Source: Candidatus Omnitrophota bacterium (GTDB lineage: Bacteria > Omnitrophota > Omnitrophia > Omnitrophales > Aquincolibacteriaceae). From it: a stretch of 22,927 bases of DNA. Positions within the stretch are counted from its first letter, which is position 1. Every line of letters begins with the position of its first letter. The notes under the pieces are model-generated. The model was given only the letters and a program-made list of their open reading frames with translations. It was not told the DNA's origin and did not search any database. The stretch covers positions 1 through 22,927 of the forward strand of contig JAZDJU010000067.1 in assembly GCA_043803685.1 (NCBI GenBank), given 5' to 3'. Position numbers and translations under genes: made by a program. Positions 2,925 through 20,888 of the stretch are shown here, piece by piece.

Positions 2925-3658
2925 GCAAATTCCATTATTCAACACGCGAGATCGGGGGCGTTGCGGTCTTTGATCTGAAGGGGATGCCGACCTACGAGAC
3001 GGTGCAGGAGGTGACCTGGAAGATCCAACGGAGCATCCGTCGTCATCATTTTCACCAGATCATCCTGAATTTTAAGGCCGTGGGTCCCATTGATACGATA
3101 GGTCTCCGTCACCTTCTGACGGTATGTCTGCGCCCAAAACACAGCGCCCTGTATGGAGCCTCGTCCGATATGGCCCATTTTCTCGAGGAGAATTGCTTCT
3201 CGGGGAAGGTCGATATCTGTGCGGATGAAAAGGAAGTGGCCGAAAGCTTTGGACCCTTCCTCTACGATAAGGACCCCGATAAGCGGTATATCGATAAAGG
3301 GGCAAAGACTCCGAAGGAATCGCTTGGCGCTCAACTGGACGGTCGGAGAAACCACCGTATGCATGTCGGGATTCCTGTGGAGCTGCGGATCTCCAGCGCC
3401 ATGAATGAGATCGTTACGACGAAGGCGATCGTTACAAATATTAGCCAGGGGGGGCTTTTTGTGGAGTATTTGGATCTGGATGCTGCCGCAAAGATCCTTG
3501 CCATGGAGCCTATCGAAAATCTGCCAGTGGAGATCCATATATTTCCAAGCGCTAATTTTCCCGATGAGTATCACGTGGCGGGCAAGATCCGGCGCAAGGA
3601 AGTTCGCAAGGAGCAACTCGGTTTTGGGATAGAATTCCAGGAAAATCCTAGGAATTAG
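2921..3658 (+). CDS. STAS (anti-sigma-factor antagonist-like) plus PilZ domain protein, 245 aa
   Basis: N-terminal VAVFDLKG...IILNFKAVGPIDTIGL resembles the STAS D-S-x-G-L motif with Thr at the phospho-site. C-terminal RRNHR...NISQGG matches the PilZ RxxxR and (D/N)xSxxG motifs, ending in GFGIEF. ATG 2921 preferred over the TTG at 2822. Confidence 0.8.
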   Translation: MSKFHYSTREIGGVAVFDLKGMPTYETVQEVTWKIQRSIRRHHFHQIILNFKAVGPIDTIGLRHLLTVCLRPKHSALYGASSDMAHFLEENCFSGKVDICADEKEVAESFGPFLYDKDPDKRYIDKGAKTPKESLGAQLDGRRNHRMHVGIPVELRISSAMNEIVTTKAIVTNISQGGLFVEYLDLDAAAKILAMEPIENLPVEIHIFPSANFPDEYHVAGKIRRKEVRKEQLGFGIEFQENPRN

Positions 3659-3845
3659 TGCCCATGTGGCATAACTTGTTTGATAGTATATGGTTGTGCG
3701 TCTTTTTATCATTCTCAAGACTATCCCCAATAGGGAATCTCTTTATTGCTTGAGCTTGTAATTTTTGAAATGTGTGTTAGATTTTTGCAAGATTTATTTA
3801 GATTGTAAAAAGTATTAATTAAATGATTTTTTAATGGAGGATTTG

Positions 3846-6800
3846 ATGAAGATTGGACTCAAAGTGGTTGCGGCGGTGACGCTCCTCTGCTTTGTGACGA
3901 CTCAATGTATTTCGGCGGCGCCCGGGGTGGGTATCGAAATAGCCAATCCACGCGAAGTGCCGTCTTACCTGAGCCTTGACGTTCCTGCGGAGCTCGGTAC
4001 GGTGGACTCTCTCTACGAAGCGCCTGCTAGCGCCAACCCACAATTCGTCCTTCATATCCAGAATGCCCATGCGAATTATGAAGCGCAAATGAAGATCAAA
4101 CAGCTTCTGGCTCATATGGACAAGCGCTACGGCTTCAAAACGATTTTCGTGGAAGGGGCTTCCGAAAAGCTGGATGCCGACTATATGCGCCTATTCCCGG
4201 ATGAAGCTCGGAACCTGAAACTTTGCGACGGACTCGCCAAACAGGGCGAATTGACCGGTGCCGAGCTTTATCTGATAGAGCAAACAGGGGCCCGTGGAAC
4301 GGGAAACGGGGAACGAAAAGCATCTAACGGTGACCGTTCATCGTTATCCGAGTTTCGCGGCGAAGCCGTTGAGGCCTTCGGGATCGAAGAAGCGGCGCTC
4401 TACCGGTCGAACTATAACGCCCTGAAGAAGGTGTTCGGCGCGGAAACGGATATCGATCATTTCTTCAAGGGGTTCGACGGTAAGATCGATCATGTCTCCT
4501 CGAAAGTATTTACGCCCGAAACCCGGGAACTGATTGCCGACTGGAAACGGTTCGAACAGGGACGCCGCGCGTTCATGCCCTTCGTTCAAGCGCTTGTTCA
4601 GAAATCCAAAAAAGTTCTGAAAGTTGATCTCGAGAGTCTTTTCGCTCAAGCGGGCTGGCCGCAGATCACGCGTCTTTTGGTCATCCAACGGATGGAAAAG
4701 GATCTGGACAGGACTCAGGCTCTTAAGGAAAAAACAACTCTTCTTGAGATGCTCCGACAGAAAGGCGCTTCGAAGGAACTGGTGGCAACGCTTGAGAATT
4801 TCAACGAGGGGAACATCACGGTCGGAAAGTCCACGAAGGAAGTTTTACCGCGTGTGGTCCTGGAGCGGCTCGCGTCCGAAATGGGGCCCAAGGGTTTCAA
4901 GTTCAGTGACTATCCTTCCTTCAGTCTCTTTGCGGGTTACGTTGCATTAAAGGCGGAGCTGGACCCCAAAGTTCTTTTCGCGGAGATCGAATCCCTTTTC
5001 ACGCAGATGCTCGATGCGCTGGGCAAGGAGCCTGAACAGAAATCACTACTCGCTCTTTACCGGGACGGCGAGCTCGTGCGTAAGCTTCTTCATCTGGAGC
5101 TGACTCGCGCCGAGTGGCGTCAGGTCGTTGCGGACAAGGATCGTCTTACTATTCCGTCGCTCGTTTCGCGATTGAAAGAATGTGTGCAAGTTGCGGATGA
5201 CGGAGGGCGGAAGGCGGAAGGCGTAAAAAATGGTTCTGCTCCATCCTCCATCCAACATCCGATATCCAAGTCTCCAGTCTCCGGTCTCCAGTCTGTGACT
5301 GACGTCATGCCCGAGAAATTTGCCAAGACGATGGAGGAACTCTTTTCGACCGGTCTCGAGTTCTATGATGTCGCGCGTCAGCGTGAAGCCGTCTTCTATA
5401 AAGAAATGCAAAATGCCATGAAAGAGCGCAAGATCAGTAAAGCCATTCTGATCACCGGCGGTTTCCACACCGACGGCATGAGCGACCTTTTCCGGGACCA
5501 TGACATGAGCTATGGCATCGTAACCCCGCGTCTCTCCGAAAAGTCCGACGAAAACCTCTATCGCAAGATCATGCTCCAGAAGAATACCGGAACTTTTGAG
5601 ATCTCCTATCTGGAATCGATCCTGAGAATGGAACCGCTGGCGGCACAGTTGGAGCAAGGCGGTGGAGATGTAACCAACATTGTGCAGGAATTTATGGCCG
5701 TGGCTAATATTTCGGATCCGGACCAGGCTGTGGCGATGTTGCGGGCCACTGCCGAGGCGACTGGAAAGACATTCTTGAATGGAAAAGACGGTAAAGGATT
5801 CGATATCGTTAAAGTGGGAAGTGGTTACAGGCTTGTTCTTCGTGAGCAAAATGCGGCGCCCGTCACTACTCAGATTGGTTCCGTTAAGGTTGAAACCGGC
5901 TCTATTGAATCACTTATGGCACCTGCCATTCCCGCGGATCAGCCTGAGGTTGAGGTCCGTTCCGCCACCCGCTCGGAATTACGCCTGGGATTTAAATCGG
6001 TGCTTTGGACGCTTACGATTTTGACGATAGGCGTCTCTCTTGTTGCGTTCTATCTCCAGTCGGAGAATCAAAGACTTCGAGTTCAACTTGGGGTGGAGAC
6101 ACAGAAGTTGGAACGCAACTTGGATTCCCATGTTGGGAAGCTTGCTCAAAAGCACGGCCTTTTCGACCAGCACGCCGACTTTTGGGTCGACGACAACGGT
6201 ATGCCAAAGTATGGGATCTATTTCTTTCCGAAGGGAGTTGTCTCGGATTGGCAAGCAGAGGTGAAGTCCGGGAGGACCACCGTCTATCAGCTTACGCAAC
6301 GTTTTAACGCCTATCAGGTGGTAAGAAATCTGGCGGATGAGCTCAAATGTCCCGTTCGGACGGAGGCTGAACTTCAGAAATTTGTCGAGATATTGTTAGC
6401 GAAGGGTGAGGCCGGACTTAAAGCTGCGATGAAGGAAGAAGCGAAAAAATGGTCTGACAAAATTCTGCCGGTGGCAGGTCCTTTCGTGAAATTCCGCTCG
6501 GAGGTGAGGGATAGGGATATTGCCACGATTCGTTCGGGCCGTATCTCGTGGGACCTTCGCGGTTTAAGTCTTTCCCTTGTTTTTTGGGGTGGTCTGGCAC
6601 TTTCCTTGTCATTCTCTGCAATTCTTATGTGGGCGATCTGGCAGGGGGATGCTGAGATCCAACCTGAACCAAGCGCTACACCGCCGGCCATCACATCATC
6701 CGTTCGCTCGGAGATGCGTCAGGATCTCATTGTCCCGCAGACTGGCACAGCTGTTTCCCCAAGAGTTGCGGCGATCGATGCGAAGAGGGCTCGTTGGAGG

Positions 6801-9800
6801 GCGGAGAGGGAATCTCAGAAGCTTGAGATTTTGGCGGAAGAGGCAAAGAGTGAATTCCCGTTGATCATCAAGTGGCGGATGGACGGAGGGAACGCGGCTT
6901 TAGGAGAAAAACCGCCGCGCGGAGTGAGAACGGCGAGGACGCCGCCGGGACAGATCGATAGCATCCAAGATGGGCGAGTTTTTTTTAGTAATGGCCTTTC
7001 TATTCCGGTCGCTTCTATTTTGGATTTGCGTACTGCGGATCCCGTTTTAAATTTTTCGGCCAACGTCATAGTCTGGGGTAGTGCGGCTTTCTTGGGTCTC
7101 ATAATTGTTTCGCTCATTTTTGCGGTGTTCAATGTGACGTCTTATCTCCAATCGCAGAACCGAGACATTGATGCCCGACTTGGAGTGCAAGTGGCAAGTT
7201 TAGAAAAGAATAGGCAAGAAAATGTGCATCTGAAGATCCTCAAGCTTGCTCTCGGTGACGATGACGGTGACAGTCTTTTCAATAAACATGCCGACTTTTG
7301 GATTGATGGCGATATTCCCAACTATGGGATCCATTTCTTTACAATGCGAGATATCTCGGATTGGCAAAAGCAGGTAGAGACCGGGAAGATCACTCTCGAT
7401 GAACTCAAGCAGCGTCTAGAGGCTTATGGGGTGGTGAGACAGCTGGCTGATGAGCTCATATGCCCCGTTCCGACACTGGAAAAGCTTGATGAGTTCGTCG
7501 GGATATATTTAAGCGAGGGTATGGACAAACTTAAAGCCGTGATGCAGGAAGAAGCGGTGCAACGATCTCGCGACGTTTTGCTGACGAATTCATTTCTTGA
7601 CAGCCTGACTCGCTCGGAGGTGAGGAGTGATACCGGGAAAGCTGCATTTACACTTCGTTGGCTTCAAGTTTTTTTATTGGGCGCATTTATTTTCACGCTC
7701 GGAGCTTATTTTGTTGAGCTTTGGCTGGAGCTTCGGCAGGCTGAAAATGTCCGAAAAACTGTGACATCTGAACATGTAACGGCTGCGACGGAATTCACCC
7801 AATTATTCCAGGATCTTTCCGGCCTCGATTCGAAAAATTCCGAGAGCACTCAAAAAGCTTTTGAAGGGTTGGTTAAAAAATACGGTTTGAAAGACATTTT
7901 GGTCGGTACCAGTTCGTCAAGCTCCCTTAAGCTGCTGCGCTTGATCGCTGGGGGATATCCCAAGCAGGATCCTGGCCAACCCTTCACAGGAATGATCTTT
8001 GGTAGCGAAGGCGGAAAGCGACTGGTCCTGGTGGGACCAGCACAGGCTGGTAAACAAGCGATTATTCGTTATAAACCGAAATGGGTTGGACAGAGCGGAA
8101 ATGCTTTATGGGGCGGAGTAGATTATGAGGCTGAGAAATGGAATCTTGAGTTATCAACTGGATTTTCTTCGAATGATTGTTTTTTAAAGTTCGGTTCGCC
8201 GGAAGAAGTTGCGGGTGTATTGCGTGAGGCAGAAGCCACTTTACCCCTATCATCGGTGGAGTATCTTATGAATGCCCCTCTGAGTGCGCCTGCCATCCAA
8301 TCCTCCCGCTCGGAGGTGAGGGTGGGTGAGGTGGTGAAGGAGTACGTCCTGCTCGCTCTTTCGGTCGTCTTTTTTGCTGGCGTGGGTTTTCTTGTGCTCT
8401 CGAACCCGCTCGTCGTGAATTTCTTGTATGCGGCGTTGAAGCTACCCATTAGTGCTCCCGCCTTTGGAATTGTGATGAAGGTTCTCGGCGTGCTATCAGG
8501 AGGTGCTCTGGGTCGGATGGTCGCTTTGCGGAAAATGTCACAGCATGTGAATGGGGAGGCTTTGAAAGCTGTCCGAAAGGTGGCGGGAGAATACGGCTTG
8601 CTTAGTGGGATGCAGTTCTCAGAATCTTTAGGAGAGAACGATGTTCAATTGTTTTTGGTCCAGGGGCTTTCCGAACAAGAGCTGAGGAAAAAATTTGAAG
8701 CTATCCAGACTATCCGGGATCTTGCTGAAGAAACTCAATATCCGGGGATTAAAGCGAACCAGAAAATGATGGTTGAGGCTTTGCGCGCTTGGGCGAGAAA
8801 GTTGCTGAGTGAGGGCGAGGACAAAGTCCCGGAGGTCAAGGAGAGGATAAGAAATTATTTTACATACCTTCGCGGGCAGCAGTTGCTTGCCGCGGCGCGT
8901 GTCAATGGTTCAGCGCCTGCCGAAGAGAAGTCCGCTCCTGCCTCTGATGCTTCGGAGGGCAAGCGCTCGGAGATGCGAGACCGTGGGCCAGCGAACTGGT
9001 TTAAGGGGGTGTCCTCGAAGGTATTGCTTGTCGCGATGTTTGTTTTGTTCACGTTCGGACAGTTGTTCCCGCCTGCGCTTGTGAGCCCTTCTTTTGCGGA
9101 GGGTCTGAAAGAGACGATTGAGCAAAGACTTGCCGACCCCGATTTGGCGCCTGGGCTTCGAGCTTTTTATGAAAAGCAATATGTGGAATTAGAGACAAAA
9201 AAGACGCTGCCGGAAACTTCGGATAAAGGTGGTGCGCCGTCTAAAAGTGCTGGAGATAACGGTCCGCGGGCGAAGGATCCCAAGGGCGTAAGCTTCTATC
9301 GTTCCCAACCTGCCGTGGTGACTACGATCGTTGATGCTGTCAGTCGCATTGGTGGAAAATATATGCGGCCCGGGGTGGGGATGCATTCTCCTACGTATGG
9401 CCCCATGGATCATGTCCAGGTGCATCCCGTGACAGGGAAGCCCGTGGGGAACCCGGCCAATTATGGCGCTCCATCCAAAGAAGGCGCTTTTTATCCGGCC
9501 ATGGTCCATTTCATGGAAGGAAATCCGGTTCTGAAAGGATCGGGCATTGAGCAGGTTTATTCCGTCAAGGATTTAGCCGCTGGCCTCCATGTGATGCAGA
9601 AGTTCCAGATGTCTGGGGAAGGCACGCAAACCTATGCTGGTTTATTTCCATGGCACTCCAAGAATGACAATGGAGAGCTTCTTATCGCTGAATATGGCGG
9701 GCGTTTTATGGTTCCAACGCTGGATAACGGACAGATGGCGTTTGGACTTGCCGCAGACGTCGGAGCGACCTTGAAGGCCACCGCGGGCACTCCTGAAAAG

Positions 9801-12800
9801 GATGTGCATGAGACCGCGCTGAAGATTCTTCGGGGCATGAATTTCGGGAAATATGTATTGTCCGATGGCTCTCTTGCGGCGGAATACAATTTCGGGACTC
9901 GATCCCTCGAAGGAAAAAGCGGCCACATGATGCTTTGGACCGAATGGGCCATTCCCGCCCTTTGGGGATATTTAACGGGGCAGGTCCCTGAAAAAGCATG
10001 GCTTTCATTTCCAAGCCCCACTTTTGTCTGGAATTCGCCCGCGGGGCCCCTCGACTTGCCCGAGGGATTTATTGATTCTGTGCATGAATGGTGGATCCTG
10101 CAATATCTCCACAAGACGATCATGAAATCCGAACTGGCGCCGCTTTTGCGGAATTTCTTTTACTATCACGCGACGCACGCACTGAAACACGATATGCCGG
10201 GTTTTGTCGCCACTGAATATTGGCAGGGAGGCTACACCCAAGGCGGTATCTGGTCTGAAAGGCCTGCGGGATCTCCGGCCGCCAGTGTAGGAACCAACCC
10301 CAAACACGAAGATATGGCAACACCCTATGCCACGGCCTTTCTGGCGCTTGTGGCTCCTGAGCCCGGTGCAGCATGGCTGAGCTATTTATTCAAACAAAAG
10401 GACATGGTGAGCGAATACGGTCCCCAGACGGCTTTTCGCCGTGCCGGCGGGCCCTCATGGATGATGTCCGCTGATAATACCTTTGGAACCCTTAACGCGG
10501 CAGGTGAACTCTATCTTCTTCTGAATAAACAGCCCGGCGGCGTCAATGATGCCATTCTCAAAACGCTGGAAAAATATTATGGGGTTTCGGAAGCGCAAGT
10601 GATCGAAGCGTTTAATCAACATGCGCGTGAGATCAAAAAAAGACTCGGGCGAGATTTCAAAGCGATCGAGGCTGCGCGTTTGCCTGGGCCGCCAACGCCC
10701 GGGAATTTCAGTTATACGCCGACAGAAAAAAAGATTTTTAAAGTTCAGGACTTGAGCCTCGCCGATCAGCTGATCGATGTCTGGCATACGAAGAATAATA
10801 AGACGGATTGGGACGCTCATACCCAGACGTTGACCGTCCGCTTCGATTTTTCCAAAAGTCTGGACCGTTATATGTATACGGGTCGGATGATCAAGGCGGT
10901 GCCTATTGACGGTTTGAACTATGTTTCCTTGTGGATCCCGGCTGATTACAAAGGCGGGACATGGCAGATCGAACTCAAAGACGCGGGCGTTGAACTTGCG
11001 CCGCGTTTGAACGTTTCGTCTGTTCGGGAGGGGCGACTGAGTCCCGATAAAAAGTGGAGAGAGGTTGTTTTTAAGACCGATTGGAAAGCTTCTTATCGCG
11101 GGATCGGAGCGGAACTGAATTATATCGCGTTTTCAGCCAATGATACTTCGTGGCATGGGACTCAGGGTGAGATCGTTTTTAAAGGGATGCAATTTCACAA
11201 GAAAGACCCCGGCACCGGCGAATCGATCTCTGCCCCTGCGACAACCGGAGCCCGCCTTGGAACAGCGCCCGAGGTAACCGGAAAAACTTCTGTCAAACAA
11301 AGCGTTCCGCTAGCTGAGATATCTTTAAATGTCCAAACGTTCCAGAAGGCGCAGAAAGCCGGGATCAACGATGTCGCGAAATTTCTGAGGGCGTACTTTT
11401 TACAGAAATACAAATATGAGCTTTCGGACACGGGGAATGTGAATGGCTGGGTGATGGGAATCGCGGGGTGGTACACGAATAGCGCTGATCATGGCGGCGA
11501 TCTGAGTAACCGGTCTTTCTCGGAATTCGAAGGCGAGATGGCGCGGAAGATCGAAGAGGCGAGAGCGAAAAACTATGGCCAGGCGAGGTCTGAAGTTCGT
11601 TCGGCGAGTTTTTATGCCGGGGTGATTGGCTTGGTCATGATGATAACGACAACGGTTGCTCAGGGTGCTGATTCGAGGCAGTTTCTTGAGGAGCGGCTTA
11701 AGGACCCGACTTTGCCTGCCGCGACGCGCCAGGTTCTTGAACAGGAATACACGCGGCTTTTAGAACAGGCGCCTGCGAAGTCCAATGCTCCTGCAACGGA
11801 GATATCTATCAATGCTCAAACGTTCCAGAAGGCGCAGAAAGCCGGGATCAACGATGTCGCGATATTTCTGAGGGCGTACTTTTTACAGAAATACAAATAT
11901 GAGCTTTCGGACACGGGGAATGTGAATGGCTGGGTGATGGGAATCGCGGGGTGGTACACGAATAGCGCTGATCATGGCGGCGATCTGAGTAACCGGTCTT
12001 TTTCGGAATTCGAAGGCGAGATGGCAAGAAAGATCGAAGAAACGAGATCAAAAAACTATGGCCAGTCGAAGTCCGGTTCTGCGCCTGCAGCGTCCATTGC
12101 ACCCAAGCCGTCTGCGACGCCTTCTCAAGCCCGTGATCTGAACGGGGCGAAGGCCGCGATCACAACGGATCTCCAGTCAAAGGGGTTTGCGATCCAAGAC
12201 CAAAGCTGGCTTTCCGGTATCGCTCCGTTTTACACGGGCAATCGACCGCTTGAGGATCTTCAAGGTGAATTAACACCTCAAAAGCTGGATCGGTTGGTTC
12301 GGGATGGAATGATCAGGCCTTTGTCTTCCCAAACTCCGTCTGCCGTACAGCAGCCGGCGGCTGTTGCGCCGACCTCGTTTTTTTCAGCGAGTTTGGCTTC
12401 TCGCAATATTATTGCCTCCAAATTGTTCGGCTTACATCCCGAATCGCAGGGGGATAGGGGGACGGTGGAGGTCACTTCAGAAGGCATTGCGGCCACATTG
12501 TCCTACGGTGGTTGGGCCGGCCTGAGATTTCCGTTGCAACGGATCGGGGACCTGATCCCGGCGGGCACTCAATATTTGATGGTGGAAATGCATACGGCGC
12601 CGCATGGATTTTTCAGTCATGGGAAATACGGTTATCCGGAAGGGGCTTATTTTGAATTCAAACGCGACAGCGCCTATGTGGTAGGGGGCGGAAAATTAGA
12701 AACAGCGGCTGGATATCATGCGGAATATGCCGACGGTGCCCGGGTGACGCGCTACTTTATTCCAGTCAAGACATTCGATCCGCAAAGCAGTATGAACTTT

Positions 12801-15800
12801 TTCGGGATCTCGACGCACGGGTTTCATGGCAATACGGGCATGCGTGTGGAAGTTCCGGCCATCGTTCCTCTCACGGGCGATGAGTACAAGAAAATTATGG
12901 CAGAAGAGATCGAAACCAGTTTTATCGGATCGGGGACAAGCAAAGTCACCATAGCGAAAGGTTCTACCGGTCGCTCGGAGGTGAGGGCGGGCTCTCTGCG
13001 TTGGCCTGTGGATGGGGATCAGAATTCAGCATGGGCTCATCTATCAGAGGAAGAATATCTTTCTTGGGGATCTAAGCTCTTCAGCGGATTGCGTAGGCTG
13101 CAATTGAACCCGTTGGAAATTGGATGGCTGAAAACGACCGGCTTTCCATCAGCGGTTAAGCGAATTGCGATTGGGCAATTGCATAGTTACTCGGTTCCGT
13201 ACGGCATGAAGCTAAGTGTTGACTATCGCAATGCGGCAACGGGGGCTTGGGGAACATTTGTCTTTGAACAGCCGGGCGAAGACCAGTGGGTTGCTTTGCC
13301 GACAAAAGCTGAAACTGTGGTTCAAGTGCCGGATAAGAAAAGCATTCCGGCGCTTGTCCGGCAAGTGCTTCTGTGGCGAAAAACAATGATCGAGCAGTTT
13401 GCTGCGGCGCGCGGGGACGCGGCACAGGGGATCGTCTATTCGGACGGAAGACGCTTTGCCCAGATCAGGGATCTTTCTTTGGCGCAAGAGCTCCTGGCGC
13501 AAGGCATCCTGGCTTTTTATGACAACAGACTCGTACTCGTGGGTGTCACTCCTGACGATTTTGCAGATCGTGGTGGTGTTCAGGTTATCCGCTCGGAGAT
13601 GCGTAAGCCATTGAAGCAGGCGCGCCTAGGTCTATGGCAAAAGGTCCCTCGTACAAGAAATGGGAAAGTCGTTCAAGAGTTCTGGTGGCTCGACGCTGCA
13701 AGAAAGTGGCTTCCTTTGACTTTGGGCGTACTGGCGTTTGTGTCCGTGGGGTTTGTTACTCTCAAGTATTATGTTGACGTACAAGAGCAGCAGCATTATG
13801 CGGTTACCGTGCCAGTGAATCAGCAGATAGCCGAGGCGCTCGAGATCCCCTATGCCGATTCTCCTCTGTTCGACAAGTTGCATTCTCTTTTTCCTGAAGC
13901 CCTCCCGGAACTAAAGGCGAAAGGTGTTATCTCAAAGGATGAAGAGGAATCTTATAATGTTGTGGAGTTTGCGAAATATGTGAAAGATTTTAGTGAGGAA
14001 AATCCTGATAAGCTTTCAGACTCACTTGCTCTGAAGATCCTGGACCTTTCCGCATGGATCGCGCAGTTGCCGAGGTCCGAAATCCGCTCCACAAACCGCT
14101 CGGAGATGAGGGGGCAGGGGGGCTTGGAGAGGCTTCGATCAATTCAGCGTTCGGTCGCGAATTGGTATAAGCGGTGGACGAAGTCTGTGGTGAGTCTTGA
14201 TCGTACGTGGCGTAATCCTGAGGTGGTGTCCTATGAGCCGGCTTGGTATGCTCCGGCGCGGGAGTTTGGAAAGAGCATGAGACGTCTTGCGCTGGGAGTC
14301 GCATTGATCGGTCCTCTCGCGTTTTTTGTGATGTTCCCTGCTGTCCAGTACGGTTTGGATGCTGTGGGGACATACATAGCAAATGTCGAAGAGGAATTGC
14401 GGCAGGCAGAGGAAATCAATCAAATGCTGGAAAAGGAGCTCAATATTCCACCGAGTAATCCGGAACTATCCAGCTCTTTTCTATCTCTCTATATGCAATG
14501 GCTTGTAGAAGTAGAAGAAAATTACAATTTCCATGAGAATGAAACGCTTTACGGCTTCTTAGTTTTTCTAAGCGGTTTAGGGAACGAGAAGATCTTTAAA
14601 CAGACGAAGGATGCTGGGTATTCGGATGGATTTTTAGGTAGGGCGCGCTTGTTGTGGCTGCAGTTGGCTGATTCGAAGGGGAAGGCGATTTTGGAAGGGC
14701 TTGCGAGGAAAGCCGAGCTCGAAAGCTATGTCGGCCAGAAGGTTAATGTTTGGTATCTGTCTGATGGAAGGGAAGCGACCTGGAGGTTGGGAACCAGACC
14801 GGCCGATGCGGATCTTGTGGTCGGAACGCTTATTCAGATCAGTACAAATGAGATCGTGGTGCTGAAAGCTGATGAGACCCTTCAGGTGATACCGAATAGA
14901 TCGCTTTTCGATGTGAAGCCGGTGTCGCCGGATGGATTGCTTAAGATGGTAGCTTCCCGCTCGGAGATGCGGTTGACGTCAGGGGCCATCTCAAGGATGC
15001 AAGAGCGTGTGGAAAAGGGGCTGGATCGGTGGTTGCAGGCGCAATCGCATCTGGAGAACCCTGCTCCGGAAGTCCGCCGGCAGCTTCAGCAGCAAGCTTT
15101 TGCGCATTTCGGATTTTCCTGGCAAGGTATTTTGAACAGGGGTTTGAATGATCCTGAATCGCAGGAGTTGAAACCTGAAATGCTTCGCTCTGGGGATGTT
15201 CTTTTTGCGCGTTCTCGTGAGTCGAAACAGAATGCGGTCTTGGTCGTACAAAATATTGAAAATGATGGCAAAGGCCAGTTTGTGAAATGGACTTTGGGGG
15301 GTAAGAAGGACGGCGCTTATTTGCATGATCAGGAGTTTTTTGAAGGGGCTCTTTCGGATTTTCTCGTTAAGGATGTATACCGGTTAAATAGGGTCGTGAG
15401 GGATATTATTAGCGGAATTGTCGGTCCCGGTAGTCCGCATATTCTTCTTCAGAATGTTCTCGTCGAAACTATTCTTGGCACAGGAAATCTTGAGGCCATG
15501 ATATCGCTCGTAGAAAAGCGAGGAGGGCAGGAGCGAGTTACAGAGCTTGCTAAGCTTTCGGCGTCCGCGGAAAAGACGAATGAAGGAGGAGAAGTTTTAA
15601 CTTTGGACTCTCTCTCAAAAAGCCTTGATAAACAAGTCGAAGAGTTGTTTGGGTTGCAGGCTATTAAGCAGAGGAATTCTCTCATAGAGAGACAGGACAA
15701 AGATAGAGAGTATAAGGATAAAGTATTGAGGAGCGAAGGTGCAGAAAGGGACAGATCCTATGATGTGCTTCAAAACACCTCTGACGACATCGGCGCCTCC

Positions 15801-18800
15801 TTGGTGAAGCTTCAGGAGTTTATCGGGAATTTGTCTGCTGAGAATTTGCGAGTTGAATTTGAAGTCTTAAAGGGGGATCGCAGTGTAGAAATAGTCCGGG
15901 ATCTTCAGGAGATCTTCTCGATTCTGAGTACAATGCGGGGCATTGTTGCGGGCGTGCCGAAAGAAATAAAGAAAATGGATCAGCTGAACCAGAAGAGGGG
16001 AACTTCCGCTTTGAAGCCGGTCGTGAGTAATCTGGAGGGACTCCAGGCGGAACTCAGCGCTTTTGGTAAAGTCTTGTCCAGGGCTCTTGCGGGTCTTCAG
16101 GCTTTTGATCCGGACGTTGAACAGCTGACGCCAACGACTCTGGAGCAAATCGAGGCGGCGCTAAAGGCTGTTGGGGAAATTGATGCGGTGCTGAAAGCCT
16201 TGGGACCGAATCTTCTGGAGTGGCGCGTCAAGGGTGTAGCATTTAATGGAACGATGAGCGTCTTAGAGTATGAGCTGCGGAAAGTTCTGCTCGCTTCTTC
16301 CCGCTCTGAGATGCGGGCGGAAGTGGTGGAAGGGCAGGATGTGAAGGCGACGATCGAGCGGCGTATCCAAAACGCGAGCCAGAATCTGCTGTTTGGAGAT
16401 TTGATTCCTGCCAATGCTCCACTGATTTCGGCTCTTAAGGTTGCAAAATTTAACGATTGGAATTCTGTTTCAACTCATGTGAATAATGCGATTGTGAAGT
16501 TGGAACCCTTCCGAAATTCGACAAACATGACGATTCGGAATTCGGCTCGGGCAGCGTCGAGAGATTTGCAAGAGGCTCTACCCTTAATCGATCAGATGCG
16601 TTCTGAGGCGAGGGGGAACGCTGTGATGACTGATGATGAAGTGATGAATGCTTTGCAGGGGCTCACGGACCGGGTAGCAGCGCTTACGACGCCCGAATTT
16701 ACCGCAAAATATTTTAACGATCCCAAGGGGGATGCAAATGTCAATCGTTTTACCCAGAATCTCAAGGCTGCGGAATTGTCTTTGAGGTTTGCGTTGCTGC
16801 GGCTTGACAAGGGTGAGCTAGTGGATGAAGTTGTTCGGGCTCACGGGCCCGAGACTCCCTTGTATCTGGCGATGAAAAATCTCACAGCGGCGTCTGTGGG
16901 AGTGTCTCGTTCCTTTGGGAGAGTAGCTTATCGTTTTTCGGAGGCAAGAAAAAATGGCAGAGTAGTGGGTAGCTTGGGTTACACCGGTTCGCTGGTCGAA
17001 GGTCTGACAAGAAAAACGGGTCTCAGGCCTGACGCCCAACTCATGGAAGAATATTTTGTAACGACGGAAGGTTTGAAGGACGAGATTCTTGCGGTAAAGA
17101 ACAGTGTCCGTTCGGAGGTAAGGGCGAATCTGGTGGGTGATCCTATGCACATCGCCAGTTTCTACTATGCCATCGATCCGGCAAAAGATCTTGCTGAGCA
17201 GAAGTCTGAAACAGAGGCCTTTCGCCAAGCGCTTCTCCAAGGTTTGGAGGCGACTCAGAATGATGCTCGTCAGTCTGGAAGGTCGGCAGACTCTTTTGAG
17301 GTTGAGCTGTTTACTTCGGTCATCACAGAAAATGTCCCGCAAACAGACGAACAATTTTTGTCATATCTGCGTTCCGCGCTGGACTTCATTTACCAATACA
17401 ACGGTACCTATGAGCTTATTTTGCTAAACAAGTCACTGAGGGATATTTTTGAAAGTGCAACTGAATATGAAGACGCAGCGTTGGCGAACGAGCATTTGAC
17501 GAACATCGAGAACATCTGGGCCTTGCAGCACAGTGTGTATGTCGCGTCAGCCGTCAGGTTTGTTGCGGATTATGAAAGAAAGCGCGGTTCTACTTCTCGC
17601 TCCGAAGTGAGGACGCCTGAGGATGATATTCGTGGTTACATCGCGAGCGCGTTAGAAGATTTGGAAACTGTTGTTTATCTGAAATATCAGCAGAAAGTAA
17701 GTGAATTGAAATGGGGGCCCTTAGCGTCTGCGCAGAAAGCTGCGAAAGCTGGGGATTGGAATAGTGTGACAAAATATGCGAAAGAGGCGTCAGACATCTT
17801 GTTGGGGGTGGCGAATGATATGAGTGCCAACGTCAATGCCCGGGGGGCGGCTGTTCTTGTGAGGCGTGATCTGGTCCAAGCTCAAAGAGTGATCGCGAGG
17901 ATGAGCCATCCAGCAGAAGGAAGGGCGGGAGGGGCTGAGCGGGCGACCCTTCTTGATGATTCTGTCGCTTCGGAGATCCTTATGCGGATCAATAATGCCG
18001 CGCTAAATTTGAAGGACGCTTCACTTGAGCCGTATAAGCAGGTGCAACTCGACCCTGCGGTTCGGGCCGCCAAGGAGAAAAAATGGGGCAGGTTGGTGGT
18101 TTTTGCCGAATGGGCCACCGGTCAATTGCAATCTTTAGCGCCAGGTAATGAGCAGGTAAAATTCGCGCAGGAGGATCTTCAGGACGTAATCTCCTTGATC
18201 GATCCCGACCGCTCCGGGTCGAGTCAGCAGCTTAGTGTCAAAAGCGCGATCGCTGCGGTGGAAGCTGTTCAGAGAAGTCTCCCCAGTAAATTGGAGCCGC
18301 TTGCGGGAGTTGGCGAAGACGCTGGTGCGAAAAACGGCGATGTTTCTCTCAAGGCACTGGATCTGACCGAGATAAAGGGTGCGGCTGTTGGAGGGATCGG
18401 TACTGACATCGATGATGTTGAAGCCAGCATCAGGTTTTTGGCGGAAAAACTCGATCGTCTGCGTGAAGTGAAAGGCTATAGACCTAGTAATGTCGAAAGC
18501 GCTGTAAAAGCTCTTCGCGCTATTGCCAACGATCTACGGGCCACACCTCGTTCTGAGGTGAGGGGAGGGCTTGCAAATGATATTCATGAATTGATGAACA
18601 TTTGGAATGATTTCGGTGGCTATGATTTCTTCCCGGCAGGTTTGCCGTTGCCTGAAGATTTTCTGAAGGCATATCGAAATGTTCTCGGGCAGCTCCGGAG
18701 TCTGGATGGCGTTTTGCGCGATGAGGCGGAACACGCAGGATTTTTAAATCTTTTAGATGAAACTATAGAAAGTCTTCAGATGCAAACTAAGGGGGTAAGA

Positions 18801-20066
18801 GATTCTAGTTCCCGCCTGGCCATGAACGCTCCAATCAGTGGGTTTCAAGAGATCCGAAAAAAAACAGGAACTGGTTACTCTTTTGCAATGCTATTGAATG
18901 ATTTTCAGAAGAATTTAAGCGTGTTGGCGATGAATGGCCAAGGTCAGCCGAATGTCGAACGAGAACTTCGGGAGATCGAGGCTCGTGCGTTTCTACGGAT
19001 CAAACCTTTGATGCAGCTTTATCTGGATGAGGCGGACAAGGTGCTTGTTCGGATACAGTCGAATGAATCACTGAAAGCGGTACTGGGTAGTTACAGTGAA
19101 ACGATCCATGCGAAACTCCAAACGATTCGCGGTCGTTCCGAGACGCGTGTGGCGGGTAAGGAATTGGAATCGGCGGATGTGGTCATGAGCCATCAGAAGC
19201 TGGCGAAGGAGGTTTGGGGCTCATTGTCACTGATCGCGCAGGGGAAACTTCGTTCTATGGGATTTGAAATTGGTAATGGCTCGTTGGCTGACGTGCTAGG
19301 ACAGATCATTGTTCCGGCGGAAATGGGAAGTATCACGGCGGAGCAAGTAAAAGCGATGCTGATGTCGCTGATCGCGCTCAGGGCGGGACAACTGGATCAA
19401 GAAAAATTTTTAGGTCTAGCAAAAACGATCTTGAAAAATCCGATGATGTCCGTGTCCAACGAAGCAGGAGTGGCGATCATTATTACGCCAAGATTGACTG
19501 AGACGGCCAAAGAAGACATCCGGCAGCAGCTGATCATGAATACAGGCCAGGTTGTGCAGGTCGTGGTGACCGAAGCGATGGATAGTGAAACGGTCAGGGC
19601 GTGGAGGGACGAGATCGAGTGGGATTATGATATTAATGGTCAGTATATCTCTGGGCGGTTTTCGATCTGGAACGCTCCGAAGAACGTTTCTCGGGACGTA
19701 CAGATCGGCATTTCAAGTATTGTCCACAGTCGTAAGGAATTTTCGGGCGGGAAGCACCTATCGATCCTTATCGAGAATTTACCTGGATTTCAGCTGTCAA
19801 ATACCCTTGGAACTGTCCTTGAAAGTCCGAGCGCCAAAGCGGAGAATGCCGGTGTTCGCAGCTTGCTGGCGATGCGGGTTTCCCAGACGAGTGTTGATCA
19901 GACCAATCGGTTGCTTTCCGCGCAGGTAGGCGGGGTCGTGCTGAAGCAGGCACCCGGGGCGGGGCAGATGAACGCGCCTTATCAGATCGACGAAAATCTT
20001 TTGACGGGCCTGGCGAAGATTTGGGCCGAGCTCATGGGGATCCGAGCAACATCGATCGCGGCATAA
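3846..20066 (+). CDS. Giant secreted/membrane modular protein (about 5,406 aa) punctuated by 18 RSExR motifs
   Basis: Uninterrupted 16.2-kb ORF. GGAGG (3836-3840) lies 5 nt before ATG 3846, and there is a Sec-type signal peptide MKIGLKVVAAVTLLCFVTTQCISA. It has multiple hydrophobic helices and a terminator directly downstream. Confidence 0.93.
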   Translation: MKIGLKVVAAVTLLCFVTTQCISAAPGVGIEIANPREVPSYLSLDVPAELGTVDSLYEAPASANPQFVLHIQNAHANYEAQMKIKQLLAHMDKRYGFKTIFVEGASEKLDADYMRLFPDEARNLKLCDGLAKQGELTGAELYLIEQTGARGTGNGERKASNGDRSSLSEFRGEAVEAFGIEEAALYRSNYNALKKVFGAETDIDHFFKGFDGKIDHVSSKVFTPETRELIADWKRFEQGRRAFMPFVQALVQKSKKVLKVDLESLFAQAGWPQITRLLVIQRMEKDLDRTQALKEKTTLLEMLRQKGASKELVATLENFNEGNITVGKSTKEVLPRVVLERLASEMGPKGFKFSDYPSFSLFAGYVALKAELDPKVLFAEIESLFTQMLDALGKEPEQKSLLALYRDGELVRKLLHLELTRAEWRQVVADKDRLTIPSLVSRLKECVQVADDGGRKAEGVKNGSAPSSIQHPISKSPVSGLQSVTDVMPEKFAKTMEELFSTGLEFYDVARQREAVFYKEMQNAMKERKISKAILITGGFHTDGMSDLFRDHDMSYGIVTPRLSEKSDENLYRKIMLQKNTGTFEISYLESILRMEPLAAQLEQGGGDVTNIVQEFMAVANISDPDQAVAMLRATAEATGKTFLNGKDGKGFDIVKVGSGYRLVLREQNAAPVTTQIGSVKVETGSIESLMAPAIPADQPEVEVRSATRSELRLGFKSVLWTLTILTIGVSLVAFYLQSENQRLRVQLGVETQKLERNLDSHVGKLAQKHGLFDQHADFWVDDNGMPKYGIYFFPKGVVSDWQAEVKSGRTTVYQLTQRFNAYQVVRNLADELKCPVRTEAELQKFVEILLAKGEAGLKAAMKEEAKKWSDKILPVAGPFVKFRSEVRDRDIATIRSGRISWDLRGLSLSLVFWGGLALSLSFSAILMWAIWQGDAEIQPEPSATPPAITSSVRSEMRQDLIVPQTGTAVSPRVAAIDAKRARWRAERESQKLEILAEEAKSEFPLIIKWRMDGGNAALGEKPPRGVRTARTPPGQIDSIQDGRVFFSNGLSIPVASILDLRTADPVLNFSANVIVWGSAAFLGLIIVSLIFAVFNVTSYLQSQNRDIDARLGVQVASLEKNRQENVHLKILKLALGDDDGDSLFNKHADFWIDGDIPNYGIHFFTMRDISDWQKQVETGKITLDELKQRLEAYGVVRQLADELICPVPTLEKLDEFVGIYLSEGMDKLKAVMQEEAVQRSRDVLLTNSFLDSLTRSEVRSDTGKAAFTLRWLQVFLLGAFIFTLGAYFVELWLELRQAENVRKTVTSEHVTAATEFTQLFQDLSGLDSKNSESTQKAFEGLVKKYGLKDILVGTSSSSSLKLLRLIAGGYPKQDPGQPFTGMIFGSEGGKRLVLVGPAQAGKQAIIRYKPKWVGQSGNALWGGVDYEAEKWNLELSTGFSSNDCFLKFGSPEEVAGVLREAEATLPLSSVEYLMNAPLSAPAIQSSRSEVRVGEVVKEYVLLALSVVFFAGVGFLVLSNPLVVNFLYAALKLPISAPAFGIVMKVLGVLSGGALGRMVALRKMSQHVNGEALKAVRKVAGEYGLLSGMQFSESLGENDVQLFLVQGLSEQELRKKFEAIQTIRDLAEETQYPGIKANQKMMVEALRAWARKLLSEGEDKVPEVKERIRNYFTYLRGQQLLAAARVNGSAPAEEKSAPASDASEGKRSEMRDRGPANWFKGVSSKVLLVAMFVLFTFGQLFPPALVSPSFAEGLKETIEQRLADPDLAPGLRAFYEKQYVELETKKTLPETSDKGGAPSKSAGDNGPRAKDPKGVSFYRSQPAVVTTIVDAVSRIGGKYMRPGVGMHSPTYGPMDHVQVHPVTGKPVGNPANYGAPSKEGAFYPAMVHFMEGNPVLKGSGIEQVYSVKDLAAGLHVMQKFQMSGEGTQTYAGLFPWHSKNDNGELLIAEYGGRFMVPTLDNGQMAFGLAADVGATLKATAGTPEKDVHETALKILRGMNFGKYVLSDGSLAAEYNFGTRSLEGKSGHMMLWTEWAIPALWGYLTGQVPEKAWLSFPSPTFVWNSPAGPLDLPEGFIDSVHEWWILQYLHKTIMKSELAPLLRNFFYYHATHALKHDMPGFVATEYWQGGYTQGGIWSERPAGSPAASVGTNPKHEDMATPYATAFLALVAPEPGAAWLSYLFKQKDMVSEYGPQTAFRRAGGPSWMMSADNTFGTLNAAGELYLLLNKQPGGVNDAILKTLEKYYGVSEAQVIEAFNQHAREIKKRLGRDFKAIEAARLPGPPTPGNFSYTPTEKKIFKVQDLSLADQLIDVWHTKNNKTDWDAHTQTLTVRFDFSKSLDRYMYTGRMIKAVPIDGLNYVSLWIPADYKGGTWQIELKDAGVELAPRLNVSSVREGRLSPDKKWREVVFKTDWKASYRGIGAELNYIAFSANDTSWHGTQGEIVFKGMQFHKKDPGTGESISAPATTGARLGTAPEVTGKTSVKQSVPLAEISLNVQTFQKAQKAGINDVAKFLRAYFLQKYKYELSDTGNVNGWVMGIAGWYTNSADHGGDLSNRSFSEFEGEMARKIEEARAKNYGQARSEVRSASFYAGVIGLVMMITTTVAQGADSRQFLEERLKDPTLPAATRQVLEQEYTRLLEQAPAKSNAPATEISINAQTFQKAQKAGINDVAIFLRAYFLQKYKYELSDTGNVNGWVMGIAGWYTNSADHGGDLSNRSFSEFEGEMARKIEETRSKNYGQSKSGSAPAASIAPKPSATPSQARDLNGAKAAITTDLQSKGFAIQDQSWLSGIAPFYTGNRPLEDLQGELTPQKLDRLVRDGMIRPLSSQTPSAVQQPAAVAPTSFFSASLASRNIIASKLFGLHPESQGDRGTVEVTSEGIAATLSYGGWAGLRFPLQRIGDLIPAGTQYLMVEMHTAPHGFFSHGKYGYPEGAYFEFKRDSAYVVGGGKLETAAGYHAEYADGARVTRYFIPVKTFDPQSSMNFFGISTHGFHGNTGMRVEVPAIVPLTGDEYKKIMAEEIETSFIGSGTSKVTIAKGSTGRSEVRAGSLRWPVDGDQNSAWAHLSEEEYLSWGSKLFSGLRRLQLNPLEIGWLKTTGFPSAVKRIAIGQLHSYSVPYGMKLSVDYRNAATGAWGTFVFEQPGEDQWVALPTKAETVVQVPDKKSIPALVRQVLLWRKTMIEQFAAARGDAAQGIVYSDGRRFAQIRDLSLAQELLAQGILAFYDNRLVLVGVTPDDFADRGGVQVIRSEMRKPLKQARLGLWQKVPRTRNGKVVQEFWWLDAARKWLPLTLGVLAFVSVGFVTLKYYVDVQEQQHYAVTVPVNQQIAEALEIPYADSPLFDKLHSLFPEALPELKAKGVISKDEEESYNVVEFAKYVKDFSEENPDKLSDSLALKILDLSAWIAQLPRSEIRSTNRSEMRGQGGLERLRSIQRSVANWYKRWTKSVVSLDRTWRNPEVVSYEPAWYAPAREFGKSMRRLALGVALIGPLAFFVMFPAVQYGLDAVGTYIANVEEELRQAEEINQMLEKELNIPPSNPELSSSFLSLYMQWLVEVEENYNFHENETLYGFLVFLSGLGNEKIFKQTKDAGYSDGFLGRARLLWLQLADSKGKAILEGLARKAELESYVGQKVNVWYLSDGREATWRLGTRPADADLVVGTLIQISTNEIVVLKADETLQVIPNRSLFDVKPVSPDGLLKMVASRSEMRLTSGAISRMQERVEKGLDRWLQAQSHLENPAPEVRRQLQQQAFAHFGFSWQGILNRGLNDPESQELKPEMLRSGDVLFARSRESKQNAVLVVQNIENDGKGQFVKWTLGGKKDGAYLHDQEFFEGALSDFLVKDVYRLNRVVRDIISGIVGPGSPHILLQNVLVETILGTGNLEAMISLVEKRGGQERVTELAKLSASAEKTNEGGEVLTLDSLSKSLDKQVEELFGLQAIKQRNSLIERQDKDREYKDKVLRSEGAERDRSYDVLQNTSDDIGASLVKLQEFIGNLSAENLRVEFEVLKGDRSVEIVRDLQEIFSILSTMRGIVAGVPKEIKKMDQLNQKRGTSALKPVVSNLEGLQAELSAFGKVLSRALAGLQAFDPDVEQLTPTTLEQIEAALKAVGEIDAVLKALGPNLLEWRVKGVAFNGTMSVLEYELRKVLLASSRSEMRAEVVEGQDVKATIERRIQNASQNLLFGDLIPANAPLISALKVAKFNDWNSVSTHVNNAIVKLEPFRNSTNMTIRNSARAASRDLQEALPLIDQMRSEARGNAVMTDDEVMNALQGLTDRVAALTTPEFTAKYFNDPKGDANVNRFTQNLKAAELSLRFALLRLDKGELVDEVVRAHGPETPLYLAMKNLTAASVGVSRSFGRVAYRFSEARKNGRVVGSLGYTGSLVEGLTRKTGLRPDAQLMEEYFVTTEGLKDEILAVKNSVRSEVRANLVGDPMHIASFYYAIDPAKDLAEQKSETEAFRQALLQGLEATQNDARQSGRSADSFEVELFTSVITENVPQTDEQFLSYLRSALDFIYQYNGTYELILLNKSLRDIFESATEYEDAALANEHLTNIENIWALQHSVYVASAVRFVADYERKRGSTSRSEVRTPEDDIRGYIASALEDLETVVYLKYQQKVSELKWGPLASAQKAAKAGDWNSVTKYAKEASDILLGVANDMSANVNARGAAVLVRRDLVQAQRVIARMSHPAEGRAGGAERATLLDDSVASEILMRINNAALNLKDASLEPYKQVQLDPAVRAAKEKKWGRLVVFAEWATGQLQSLAPGNEQVKFAQEDLQDVISLIDPDRSGSSQQLSVKSAIAAVEAVQRSLPSKLEPLAGVGEDAGAKNGDVSLKALDLTEIKGAAVGGIGTDIDDVEASIRFLAEKLDRLREVKGYRPSNVESAVKALRAIANDLRATPRSEVRGGLANDIHELMNIWNDFGGYDFFPAGLPLPEDFLKAYRNVLGQLRSLDGVLRDEAEHAGFLNLLDETIESLQMQTKGVRDSSSRLAMNAPISGFQEIRKKTGTGYSFAMLLNDFQKNLSVLAMNGQGQPNVERELREIEARAFLRIKPLMQLYLDEADKVLVRIQSNESLKAVLGSYSETIHAKLQTIRGRSETRVAGKELESADVVMSHQKLAKEVWGSLSLIAQGKLRSMGFEIGNGSLADVLGQIIVPAEMGSITAEQVKAMLMSLIALRAGQLDQEKFLGLAKTILKNPMMSVSNEAGVAIIITPRLTETAKEDIRQQLIMNTGQVVQVVVTEAMDSETVRAWRDEIEWDYDINGQYISGRFSIWNAPKNVSRDVQIGISSIVHSRKEFSGGKHLSILIENLPGFQLSNTLGTVLESPSAKAENAGVRSLLAMRVSQTSVDQTNRLLSAQVGGVVLKQAPGAGQMNAPYQIDENLLTGLAKIWAELMGIRATSIAA
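4288..4357. repeat. In-frame heptamer-repeat palindromic insertion in the giant gene
   Basis: GGAACG GGAAACG GGGAACG ... CGTTCAT CGTTATC CGAGTTT. It encodes the low-complexity loop GARGTGNGERKASNGDRSS. Confidence 0.6.
5193..5294. repeat. In-frame heptamer-repeat insertion in the giant gene
   Basis: GCGGATG ACGGAGG GCGGAAG GCGGAAG ... TCCATCC TCCATCC AACATCC GATATCC AAGTCTC CAGTCTC CGGTCTC. A purine-rich arm is followed by a pyrimidine-rich arm. Confidence 0.7.
9300..10560 (+). other. Glucoamylase-like (alpha/alpha)6 glycoside hydrolase domain, GH144/GH189-like (boundaries approximate)
   Basis: Ordered motifs GLFPWH (9639), VPTLDNGQM (9711), LWTEW (W at 9936), DSVHEW (10074), TPYATAFLAL (10320), YGPQTAF (10416), MSADN (10464). 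They parallel the GHFYNWY / VSxVDSGNL / LASE / GSMFE / APYAxxLAL / YGFYEA order recalled for the Cgs/NdvB glycoamylase domain. Confidence 0.6.
10740..11200 (+). other. CBM11/CIA30-like beta-sandwich, putative carbohydrate-binding domain (boundaries approximate)
   Basis: Pattern IDGLNYVSLWI...WQIELKD...KWREVVF...LNYIAFS...GEIVFKGMQF immediately follows the GH-like domain. Confidence 0.5.
11316..12065 (+). repeat. Near-identical 267-bp direct repeat (11316-11582 and 11799-12065; 89 aa)
   Basis: Offset 483 bp. In manual alignment the 209-bp core (11334-11542 vs 11817-12025) differs at only 2 positions (AAA>ATA, TTC>TTT). Confidence 0.95.
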
Positions 20067-20087: not shown

Positions 20088-20120
20088 GAGGGCGGGATCA
20101 TTCCCGCCCTCTTTTTTTTT
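20088..20120 (+). terminator. Rho-independent terminator of the giant gene
   Basis: Perfect 10-bp stem GAGGGCGGGA-TCAT-TCCCGCCCTC followed by T9. Confidence 0.92.
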
Positions 20121-20217
20121 GTGCGCCCGGTAGGGCGCAGCTTGTCGCTGATCGGGACCTCGCCTTTTGTTCGTTTCTACCCCAACCACCTGCGAGGTGT
20201 ACAGGGTATTCGTCAGT

Positions 20218-20246
20218 TTGACATTATAACGTCATAATGTTATAGT
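20218..20246 (+). promoter_or_regulatory. Sigma70 promoter with palindromic operator for the TA operon
   Basis: TTGACA, 17-nt spacer, TATAGT. The inverted repeat ACATTAT-N6-ATAATGT (20221-20240) spans the spacer. SD GGAGGTG at 20253-20259. Confidence 0.8.
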
Positions 20247-20264: not shown

Positions 20265-20492
20265 ATGACTCTGACTCGAACGACCGTTTATTTAGACCCT
20301 AAGATCCACAGAGCGATCAAAATGAGAGCGGCTCAGATGTCGATGAGCGTTTCCGAAGTGATCAGTGAAGCTCTGCGATTGTCGCTCAAAGAAGATGCCG
20401 TTGACCTGGGGGCGATCCAGAGCCGCGTTTCTGAGCCGTCCCGTTCGTATGAGGCGGTACTCAAGGATCTGAAAAAAGATGGCCTCCTTTAA
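20265..20492 (+). CDS. CopG/ribbon-helix-helix antitoxin
   Basis: RTTVYLDPKIHRAIKMRAA...SVSEVISEALR fits the RHH pattern. 75 aa; overlaps the downstream toxin gene. Confidence 0.85.
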   Translation: MTLTRTTVYLDPKIHRAIKMRAAQMSMSVSEVISEALRLSLKEDAVDLGAIQSRVSEPSRSYEAVLKDLKKDGLL

Positions 20493-20773: not shown

Positions 20774-20801
20774 TTGACAGGAAAACGCTCGGGAGTATAA
20801 T
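20774..20801 (+). promoter_or_regulatory. Consensus sigma70 promoter
   Basis: TTGACA (20774-20779), 16-nt spacer, TATAAT (20796-20801). Confidence 0.75.
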
Positions 20802-20807
20802 ACGCGC

Positions 20808-20888
20808 ATGCGAGACTTACGGGTCTCGACTCACCTGCAGAGGTTCGTGGCCACCAGATCCCCACTCGGTCACGAACCTCTTTTTTTT
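20808..20888 (+). ncRNA. Candidate ~80-nt small RNA or attenuating leader
   Basis: Directly after a consensus promoter: hairpin CGAGACT-TACG-GGTCTCG (UNCG-type loop), then stem GAGGTTCGTGGCC/GGTCACGAACCTC followed by T8. No family recognised. Confidence 0.45.

Follow-up and report, generated by a model that had tools for sequence, protein, structure and literature searches.

The single giant ORF of the window, the 22,927-nucleotide stretch of an Omnitrophota contig analyzed here, spans 16 kb (3834-20066, + strand) and encodes a predicted protein of 5,410 amino acids in which the peptide RSExR recurs 18 times. The gene appears to encode a polyprotein: between a head and a tail that stay constant lies a rapidly changing series of cargo modules, every one of which corresponds to a complete protein and is linked to its neighbor by R-[S/A]-E-x-R. 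Judging from sequence comparisons, the best explanation of this motif, with a probability of roughly 0.55, is that it is a protease site read by a factor that acts genome-wide; that the giants are cleaved by one route or another is probable. The motif would be the recognition site of an Arg-specific endopeptidase, so that each cut would free a module with its own N-terminus. The cutting most likely would occur in cytoplasm, either the producer's or a host's, in which case the internal signal peptides and membrane anchors would be read afterwards. A weaker inference is that one reader is shared genome-wide, the candidates being either the TIKI-fold heads, all with the same specificity, or an independent protease. 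New junctions would be copied from old ones as modules duplicate or swap, which would explain the codon signature described below.

Layout of the giant protein

The giant consists of a predicted signal peptide, a head domain, 17 motif-bounded segments and a tail, all encoded on the + strand. No significant Pfam family was detected either in the whole protein or in the 17 segments scanned. The signal-peptide-like N-terminal segment (amino acids 1-29; 3834..3920), with a hydrophobic run at amino acids 11-29, was read from the sequence, and is followed by the head (amino acids 45-600; 3966..5633), in which a TIKI/EreA/ChaN-like alpha/beta core appears to carry a large helical insert. The first-pass annotation had counted 18 in-frame copies of RSExR between 5970 and 19148, and this count is borne out against 0.09 copies expected from composition, together with the residues at the x position (V in eight copies, M in six, and L, I, A and T) and the exact spacings of the motifs, namely, 175, 70, 302, 232, 219, 874, 462, 206, 161, 8, 287, 448, 99, 170, 163, 317 and 195 aa, with a final segment of 310 aa. 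The N-terminal region is indeed devoid of the motif, the first copy being located at amino acid 713.

Motif 1 (RSELR, amino acid 713; 5970..5984) precedes a transmembrane segment and is followed by motifs 2 (RSEVR, 888; 6495..6509), 3 (RSEMR, 958; 6705..6719), 4 (RSEVR, 1260; 7611..7625), 5 (RSEVR, 1492; 8307..8321) and 6 (RSEMR, 1711; 8964..8978). A membrane-anchored cargo domain is present in two copies with 70% DNA identity (6197-6468 and 7310-7581), each of which stops shortly before a motif. The largest module (874 aa; 8979..11585), which holds the glycoside-hydrolase-like domain and, as initially claimed, no motif, begins with an internal signal-peptide-like stretch (hydrophobic amino acids 1730-1746, then S-F-A) and continues into a domain with a weak match to endo-beta-1,2-glucanase (PDB 6IMW, E 0.0026); a homolog with 30% identity across ~700 aa was detected in P0202. 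Motif 7 (RSEVR, 2585; 11586..11600) is followed by another signal-peptide-like segment that was read from the sequence and falls under the threshold of the hydropathy script used for the topology calls. A recent domain duplication of 275 nt (11316-11590 and 11799-12073, + strand, 95% identical) lies across this motif. Further downstream are motifs 8 (RSEVR, 3047; 12972..12986) and 9 (RSEMR, 3253; 13590..13604), motifs 10 and 11 (RSEIR and RSEMR; 14073..14111), which are 8 aa apart and thus enclose an empty module, and motifs 12 (RSEMR, 3709; 14958..14972), 13 (RSEMR, 4157; 16302..16316), 14 (RSEAR, 4256; 16599..16613), 15 (RSEVR, 4426; 17109..17123), 16 (RSEVR, 4589; 17598..17612), 17 (RSEVR, 4906; 18549..18563) and 18 (RSETR, 5101; 19134..19148).

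The conserved tail module (305 aa; 19149..20063) is predicted to comprise an alpha/beta domain and a terminal helix ending in AA. The AF2 model of the tail (pLDDT 72.6) yields generic Rossmann-like matches only (Foldseek TM ~0.22, best VIA Z of 8.1) and no fold assignment, Atlas scores are below 0.8, and the tail contains no invariant catalytic residue; the tail profile reached 111 of 190 complete tails. An intrinsic-terminator-like hairpin located 3' of the stop codon (20088..20121, + strand) is suggestive by position only because one was found and shuffled sequences give 1.2.

The motif at module edges

The location of the motif at module boundaries, proposed from the source sequence, holds in the relatives: none of the 117 copies in 13 scanned relatives falls inside a Pfam domain, compared with 10.4 expected (scored on the single best stretch for each family). 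When 123 proteins were compared all against all after masking of the motifs, 407 cargo alignments were obtained, of which 35% have their start and 27% their end no more than 10 aa away from a motif, compared with 6% at random; only 74 alignments span a motif, compared with 205 expected. The motif, hence, sits at module edges. The broader claim that it marks domain boundaries is correct for these edges but not for every domain edge: in the 275-nt duplication, one copy ends at the motif and the other does not. The segments in the relatives have a median length of 250 aa, and 78 of the 1,095 segments are no longer than 30 aa. Their cargo includes kinases, UDP-glucose dehydrogenase, PEP-utilizer and receiver domains, and in one giant (G027), a signal peptide and an HtrA-like protease are located exactly between two motifs.

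Membrane topology, called with a simple hydropathy script, bears on the same question. Transmembrane segments begin within 40 aa after 83 of the 1,218 motifs and end within 40 aa before 24, with 29 expected at random. In the first segment after the head (77 proteins), the more positive side by net charge is N-terminal in 45 cases vs 20 (p 0.003), which speaks against an uncut chain because an exported head would need the opposite orientation. With Lys and Arg alone, the same comparison gives 38 vs 24 (p 0.10), single-segment modules show no orientation bias (45 vs 50 by Lys/Arg, 56 vs 43 by net charge), and a stricter first topology run was weak too. The topology pattern can be considered suggestive only, in favor of cutting.

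Selection on the peptide and the origin of the codon bias

The sequence comparisons show strong selection on RSExR at the peptide level. Single-residue variants of the motif occur at the chance level, with the exception of Ala (in some genomes, Pro) at position 2, Lys never substitutes for either Arg, and the flanks show no conservation. Peptide-level selection had been proposed on the grounds of synonymous codon variation; both the variation and the selection stand, but the codons are strongly biased. In the source genome (G000), the motif Ser is encoded by TCN in 158 of the 162 copies and the first Arg by CGY in 137 of 162; among the non-motif RS pairs, 102 of 340 use AGY. The combination CGY-TCN-GAR is dominant in the source genome and other families (Arg1 CGY in 103/115, Ser TCN in 108/115), and the codons are more alike among copies within one gene than between genes (p 0.003). 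Given this bias and the within-gene likeness, the junctions probably arise by copying, so that copying of junction DNA is the likely origin of the codon bias. The DNA itself does not seem to be the functional unit of the junction because one genome (G013) keeps the peptide with mixed codons, the Ser being AGY in 11 of 23 copies.

A large Omnitrophota family with fixed layout

The giant is a member of a large family of Omnitrophota proteins that lacks annotation and whose layout is constant: signal peptide, head, variable cargo and a tail with AA or SA as the last two residues. Among the 8,175 stop-to-stop ORFs of at least 100 aa in the source genome, 17 ORFs with at least two motifs hold 162 of the 216 copies. 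As anticipated at first pass, the enrichment is confined to giants that share the N-terminal domain: all 12 members with an intact start carry the head, and the remaining 5 are truncated at the edge of a contig. In this set, 14 C-termini are complete, every one of them with AA or SA at its end, and one paralog exceeds 10,000 aa. None of the seven other ORFs longer than 2,000 aa contains the motif, and 2,009 other ORFs contain 13 copies vs 12.5 expected, that is, the motif is at the chance level and not depleted.

All 41 related genomes encode the head, and clustering at 50% identity gives 9,874 clusters that contain it; among the related loci, 15 of 20 are labeled Omnitrophota or Omnitrophica and 5 uncultured bacterium. 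The related proteins are punctuated by the same motif or by a counterpart of it (RSExR, [AG]xSLG or GAR[LM]A), as the first-pass annotation had implied: of 107 head-bearing rows, 73 are of the RSExR type, 12 have [AG]xSLG, 5 have GAR[LM]A and 17 have no clear motif (4 further rows, in which the head pattern was not found, were skipped). A DNA-pattern scan, with at least 20 matches and at least a 3-fold excess over the reversed control counted as positive, was positive in 52 of the 62 genomes of the family. Elsewhere in the order, 8 of 25 genomes were positive, and these belong to just two families; outside the order, 1 of 164 was. The latter, an outlier with 40 pattern matches (G109), looks like background: of the 7 matches checked, 5 are antisense or in another reading frame. 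Five low-scoring genomes of the family were sampled; four use variants that the pattern misses (RSE[T/S]R, RSELR, RPExR and R[AGP]ELR) and the fifth has one short gene without a motif.

The source genome also encodes a paralog of 739 aa free of both cargo and motif (L033, G000:C114:46201-48420), which consists of a signal, the head and a tail-like end in AA. Such a cargo-free head is present as a single copy in 21 of 24 genomes of the family, often head-to-head with a giant gene, and was not found in the other families searched, users of RSExR included; on this ground it was rejected as a universal reader.

The head domain

The AF2 model of the head (pLDDT 87, 46 sequences in the alignment) places it in the TIKI/EreA/ChaN fold. 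The top rows of the VIA comparison are EreC (Z 8.9; rmsd 4.4, 171 residues aligned), HopBA1 (Z 8.5; rmsd 4.0, 170 of 217), Bcr135/136 (Z 8.2/8.1) and ChaN (Z 8.0; rmsd 6.3, 184). This superfamily accounts for five of the six best rows, with moderate Z values. Foldseek gave no match at E 0.001, the head sequence has no match in PDB or Pfam, and the search against the Atlas retrieved only Omnitrophota clusters without names. In the accessible part of the published account of the superfamily, EreC, HopBA1, Bcr135/136 and ChaN are assigned to the TIKI superfamily, and the endopeptidase RRSP is described as having two catalytic His and two catalytic Glu along with a conserved Arg, the first acidic residue being Glu-3900 (PMC6254334). 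In the 246 aligned head rows, H79, E107, R517 and H545 are near-invariant (100% each), which is partly circular for H79 and H545 because both His are in the pattern by which the rows were picked, and not so for E107 and R517. Q76 and E185 are also conserved, as alternatives to the residue at position 77. This position, which aligns with Glu-3900 of RRSP, is D in 46%, N in 37%, S in 9% and E in 5% of the rows, with Asn in the source giant. Thus, by the modeled fold and the His-Glu, second His and basic residue, the head appears to be a member of the TIKI/EreA/ChaN fold, and probably, an active hydrolase. The first motif trails the head by a median of 141 aa after GGFH. Two variable in-frame inserts in the head (4278-4368 and 5190-5319, + strand) consist of hairpin-like DNA with short imperfect repeats; they match low-confidence loops of the AF2 model, and the paralogs carry similar inserts at the same places.

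Motif types and the putative reader

The distribution of the motif types indicates that they are a property of the lineage rather than of the head paralog. In the source genome, RSExR is found in all paralog clades. Families f3, f8 and f10 use [AG]xSLG, and G109 uses GAR[LM]A; in f3 and f8, [AG]xSLG dominates the pooled cargo of the sampled genes in 4 of 5 genomes (G026 has too few copies), and its users there include orthologs of deep RSExR paralogs of the source genome. On the head tree, the two types are intermingled within four clades that have good support, and a single [AG]xSLG head clade is rejected (AU p 7e-7) for 30 rows that were chosen after earlier trees and of which some were labeled by genome and have few motifs. 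No head column tracks the motif type across the deep clades. The lineage-wise pattern favors a shared reader over strict self-cutting; the enzyme to look for would then be one for each genome and might be a novel protease with sequence specificity. Dialects can be gene-specific as well, given that two genes of one genome differ in the motif: in G125, one gene has RPExR in 16 copies (L129, G125:C11) and another has RSELR or RSEMR.

No protease whose sequence tracks the motif was found. The one trypsin-like gene of the source genome and those of four other genomes were considered and rejected as the reader, being HtrA-like or unrelated to the motif type; S8, C39, C14 and S41 peptidases were not found in the source genome, which is 91% complete. 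Two further observations weigh against the protease reading: the rest of the proteome is not depleted of the motif, whereas a protease free to diffuse through the cytoplasm might bring about such depletion, and 17 of the 107 head-bearing rows show no clear motif. Besides, the head carries a signal peptide and so could not easily reach junctions in the cytoplasm of its own cell. A tentative and rather unlikely extension of the protease reading is that the giants are protein-level cassette arrays, that is, polyproteins that would be delivered whole to a host or prey and cut there, at a single motif specific to the lineage, by a shared TIKI-fold protease, after which the cargos would be sorted by their own signal peptides. 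If true, this would be a delivery and processing system without a described bacterial counterpart, with a dozen or more polyproteins per genome releasing hundreds of fast-changing cargo proteins.

Alternative explanations

The alternatives differ in whether the chain is cut and at what level the junction acts. If the motif were an uncut binding tag, either for docking or module-by-module re-engagement of a chaperone or export machine, or a modification site, the data on boundaries, selection and per-genome usage would fit a shared binding partner, the lack of depletion elsewhere in the proteome would pose no problem, and the conserved AA/SA tail would suggest C-terminal handling. Against this, signal-bearing modules and cytoplasmic-type enzymes would be hard to use in an uncut chain, and short empty modules are tolerated, so that we regard a tag as unlikely. 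Strict self-processing, whereby every TIKI-fold head would have a specificity of its own and cleave the chain to which it belongs, by analogy with the MARTX cysteine protease, draws on the presence of the head at the start of every intact member, on its four near-invariant residues, on the median distance from GGFH to the first motif, on the gene-specific dialect of G125 and on the failure to find S8, C39 and C14 peptidases in the source genome. This version appears quite improbable: the motif type changes in concert, lineage by lineage, in four or more deep clades of heads, a switch that is followed by no head column, 21 of the 24 genomes of the family retain the motif-free, cargo-free head, and export of the head is predicted.

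The two remaining alternatives dispense with a protease. Separation of the products at the level of translation, through ribosome pausing, peptide-bond skipping or internal initiation, would agree with the strong codon bias, with ATG or GTG at x in 80 of the 162 copies and with GGAG or GAGG in 83 of 162. However, the commonest x codon in other genomes is GCG, the flanks are unconserved, G013 keeps the peptide with mixed codons and the SLG and GARMA motifs have unrelated DNA, which makes this route very unlikely; internal initiation in particular is rejected because Met is not enriched in the four codons after the motif (8/162, with a background of 2.3% per codon). Least credible of all is a DNA recombination site for cassette shuffling, with the peptide as an in-frame scar. 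Such a site would account for the dominance of CGY-TCN-GAR in the source genome and other families, for the within-gene codon likeness and for the fast cargo turnover at a fixed locus, and YTCNGAR reads as a degenerate palindrome. Yet synonymous change is plentiful and amino acid changes are purged, the SLG lineages use both Ser codon boxes, no recombinase gene lies next to the locus, and the AGY codons of G013 largely refute a purely DNA-level site as the sole role. A genome-wide reader that cleaves at RSExR thus remains our preferred reading.

Relation to known systems

In MARTX toxins, effector arrays are released by an internal cysteine protease, and glycine-rich repeat regions are present. 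The MARTX analogy drawn at first pass is apt insofar as conserved ends flank a variable string of domains that, in the giants, is proposed to be separated at short sites; the part of it that implies self-cleavage in cis loses weight, given that motif types go with lineages rather than with head paralogs. Unlike MARTX, the giant has no cysteine-protease domain by Pfam and no repeat arrays, it has an N-terminal signal peptide and modules with signals of their own, and a dozen or more paralogs per genome share one motif. Polyproteins of the flavivirus type contain repeated short sites between whole proteins, with internal signal or anchor segments after the sites, a pattern that the giant resembles. 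In contrast to these, the giant gene is chromosomal, in a conserved locus among housekeeping genes, and its cargo differs between close relatives; its synteny with pheT, mgsA/rarA, STAS-PilZ and aroQ in related genomes does not fit a viral origin. By analogy, the giant would work like a viral or MARTX polyprotein while belonging to neither class. In integron-like arrays, the junction is conserved as DNA and a recombinase lies beside the array, whereas the junction here is a peptide with mixed codons in G013, and no recombinase is encoded within the window.

The head resembles the TIKI/TraB/EreA/ChaN proteins (RRSP, HopBA1 and Bcr135/136 in the accessible part of PMC6254334) in the fold and in the His, Glu, Arg and His at matching strands, the residues being paired by order and motif rather than by superposition. 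It differs from them in a helical insert of ~300 residues, in the Asn at the first acidic position, in the lack of Pfam or PDB sequence matches and in its position atop thousands of polyproteins (the 9,874 clusters). With the multi-enzyme, Archaeovorin-type giants of Omnitrophota, the source giant shares the combination, within a single chain, of a signal peptide and transmembrane segments with enzyme domains that are unrelated to one another. At 5,410 aa, it is below the size cut-offs of >10,000 aa, >20 kb or >90 kb given in the available portions of West-Roberts (bioRxiv 10.1101/2023.11.21.568195), bioRxiv 10.64898/2026.06.07.730766 and Seymour (PMC10066038), and by Pfam it has neither C39 or S8 domains near the N-terminus nor SecA-like domains.

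The literature leaves open whether the Omnitrophota giants function as a single chain or undergo cutting. In the part of West-Roberts that is accessible, cleavage of the giants is proposed, cut points are not reported and the lack of known cleavage points is said to have blocked the analysis; the corresponding part of the 2026 preprint treats internal signal peptides of the giants as chunking artifacts. The head and the junction motif are not mentioned in the available parts of these two, of Seymour and of the Lipocone preprint, and the tail is not mentioned in those of the first three. No published description of the motif was found in a search of mostly open-access literature, and bioRxiv supplements could list it. 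A five-residue junction provides concrete sites for proteomics and reporter assays and splits the giants into real units for annotation and folding (~160 in the source genome), and topology predictions of whole giants are to be read differently.

Genomic neighborhood

The giant gene is preceded by pheT, mgsA/rarA and a STAS-PilZ gene, and followed by a DUF1844 gene, a lysylphosphatidylglycerol-synthase-like gene and aroQ. This neighborhood is kept in 17 of 20 related loci, where the protein lengths differ, and no substantial counterpart of the source giant's cargo DNA turned up among 19 congeneric genomes. The STAS-PilZ gene directly upstream (2822-3658, + strand) is conserved in most of the related loci and is a possible c-di-GMP-linked regulator. 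After the giant gene comes a small toxin-antitoxin pair (20265-20742, + strand), with a promoter-like site at 20218-20246, a ribbon-helix-helix antitoxin (PF01402, E 5e-4) and a ParE/RelE-type toxin (PF05016, E 5e-15). The window yielded neither an Rfam family nor a tRNA, and this holds for the stretch that comes next as well. This stretch (20774-20920, + strand), located before the DUF1844 gene, consists of a perfect sigma-70 promoter-like site followed by an untranslated region with a T run, and could correspond to a small RNA or a leader.
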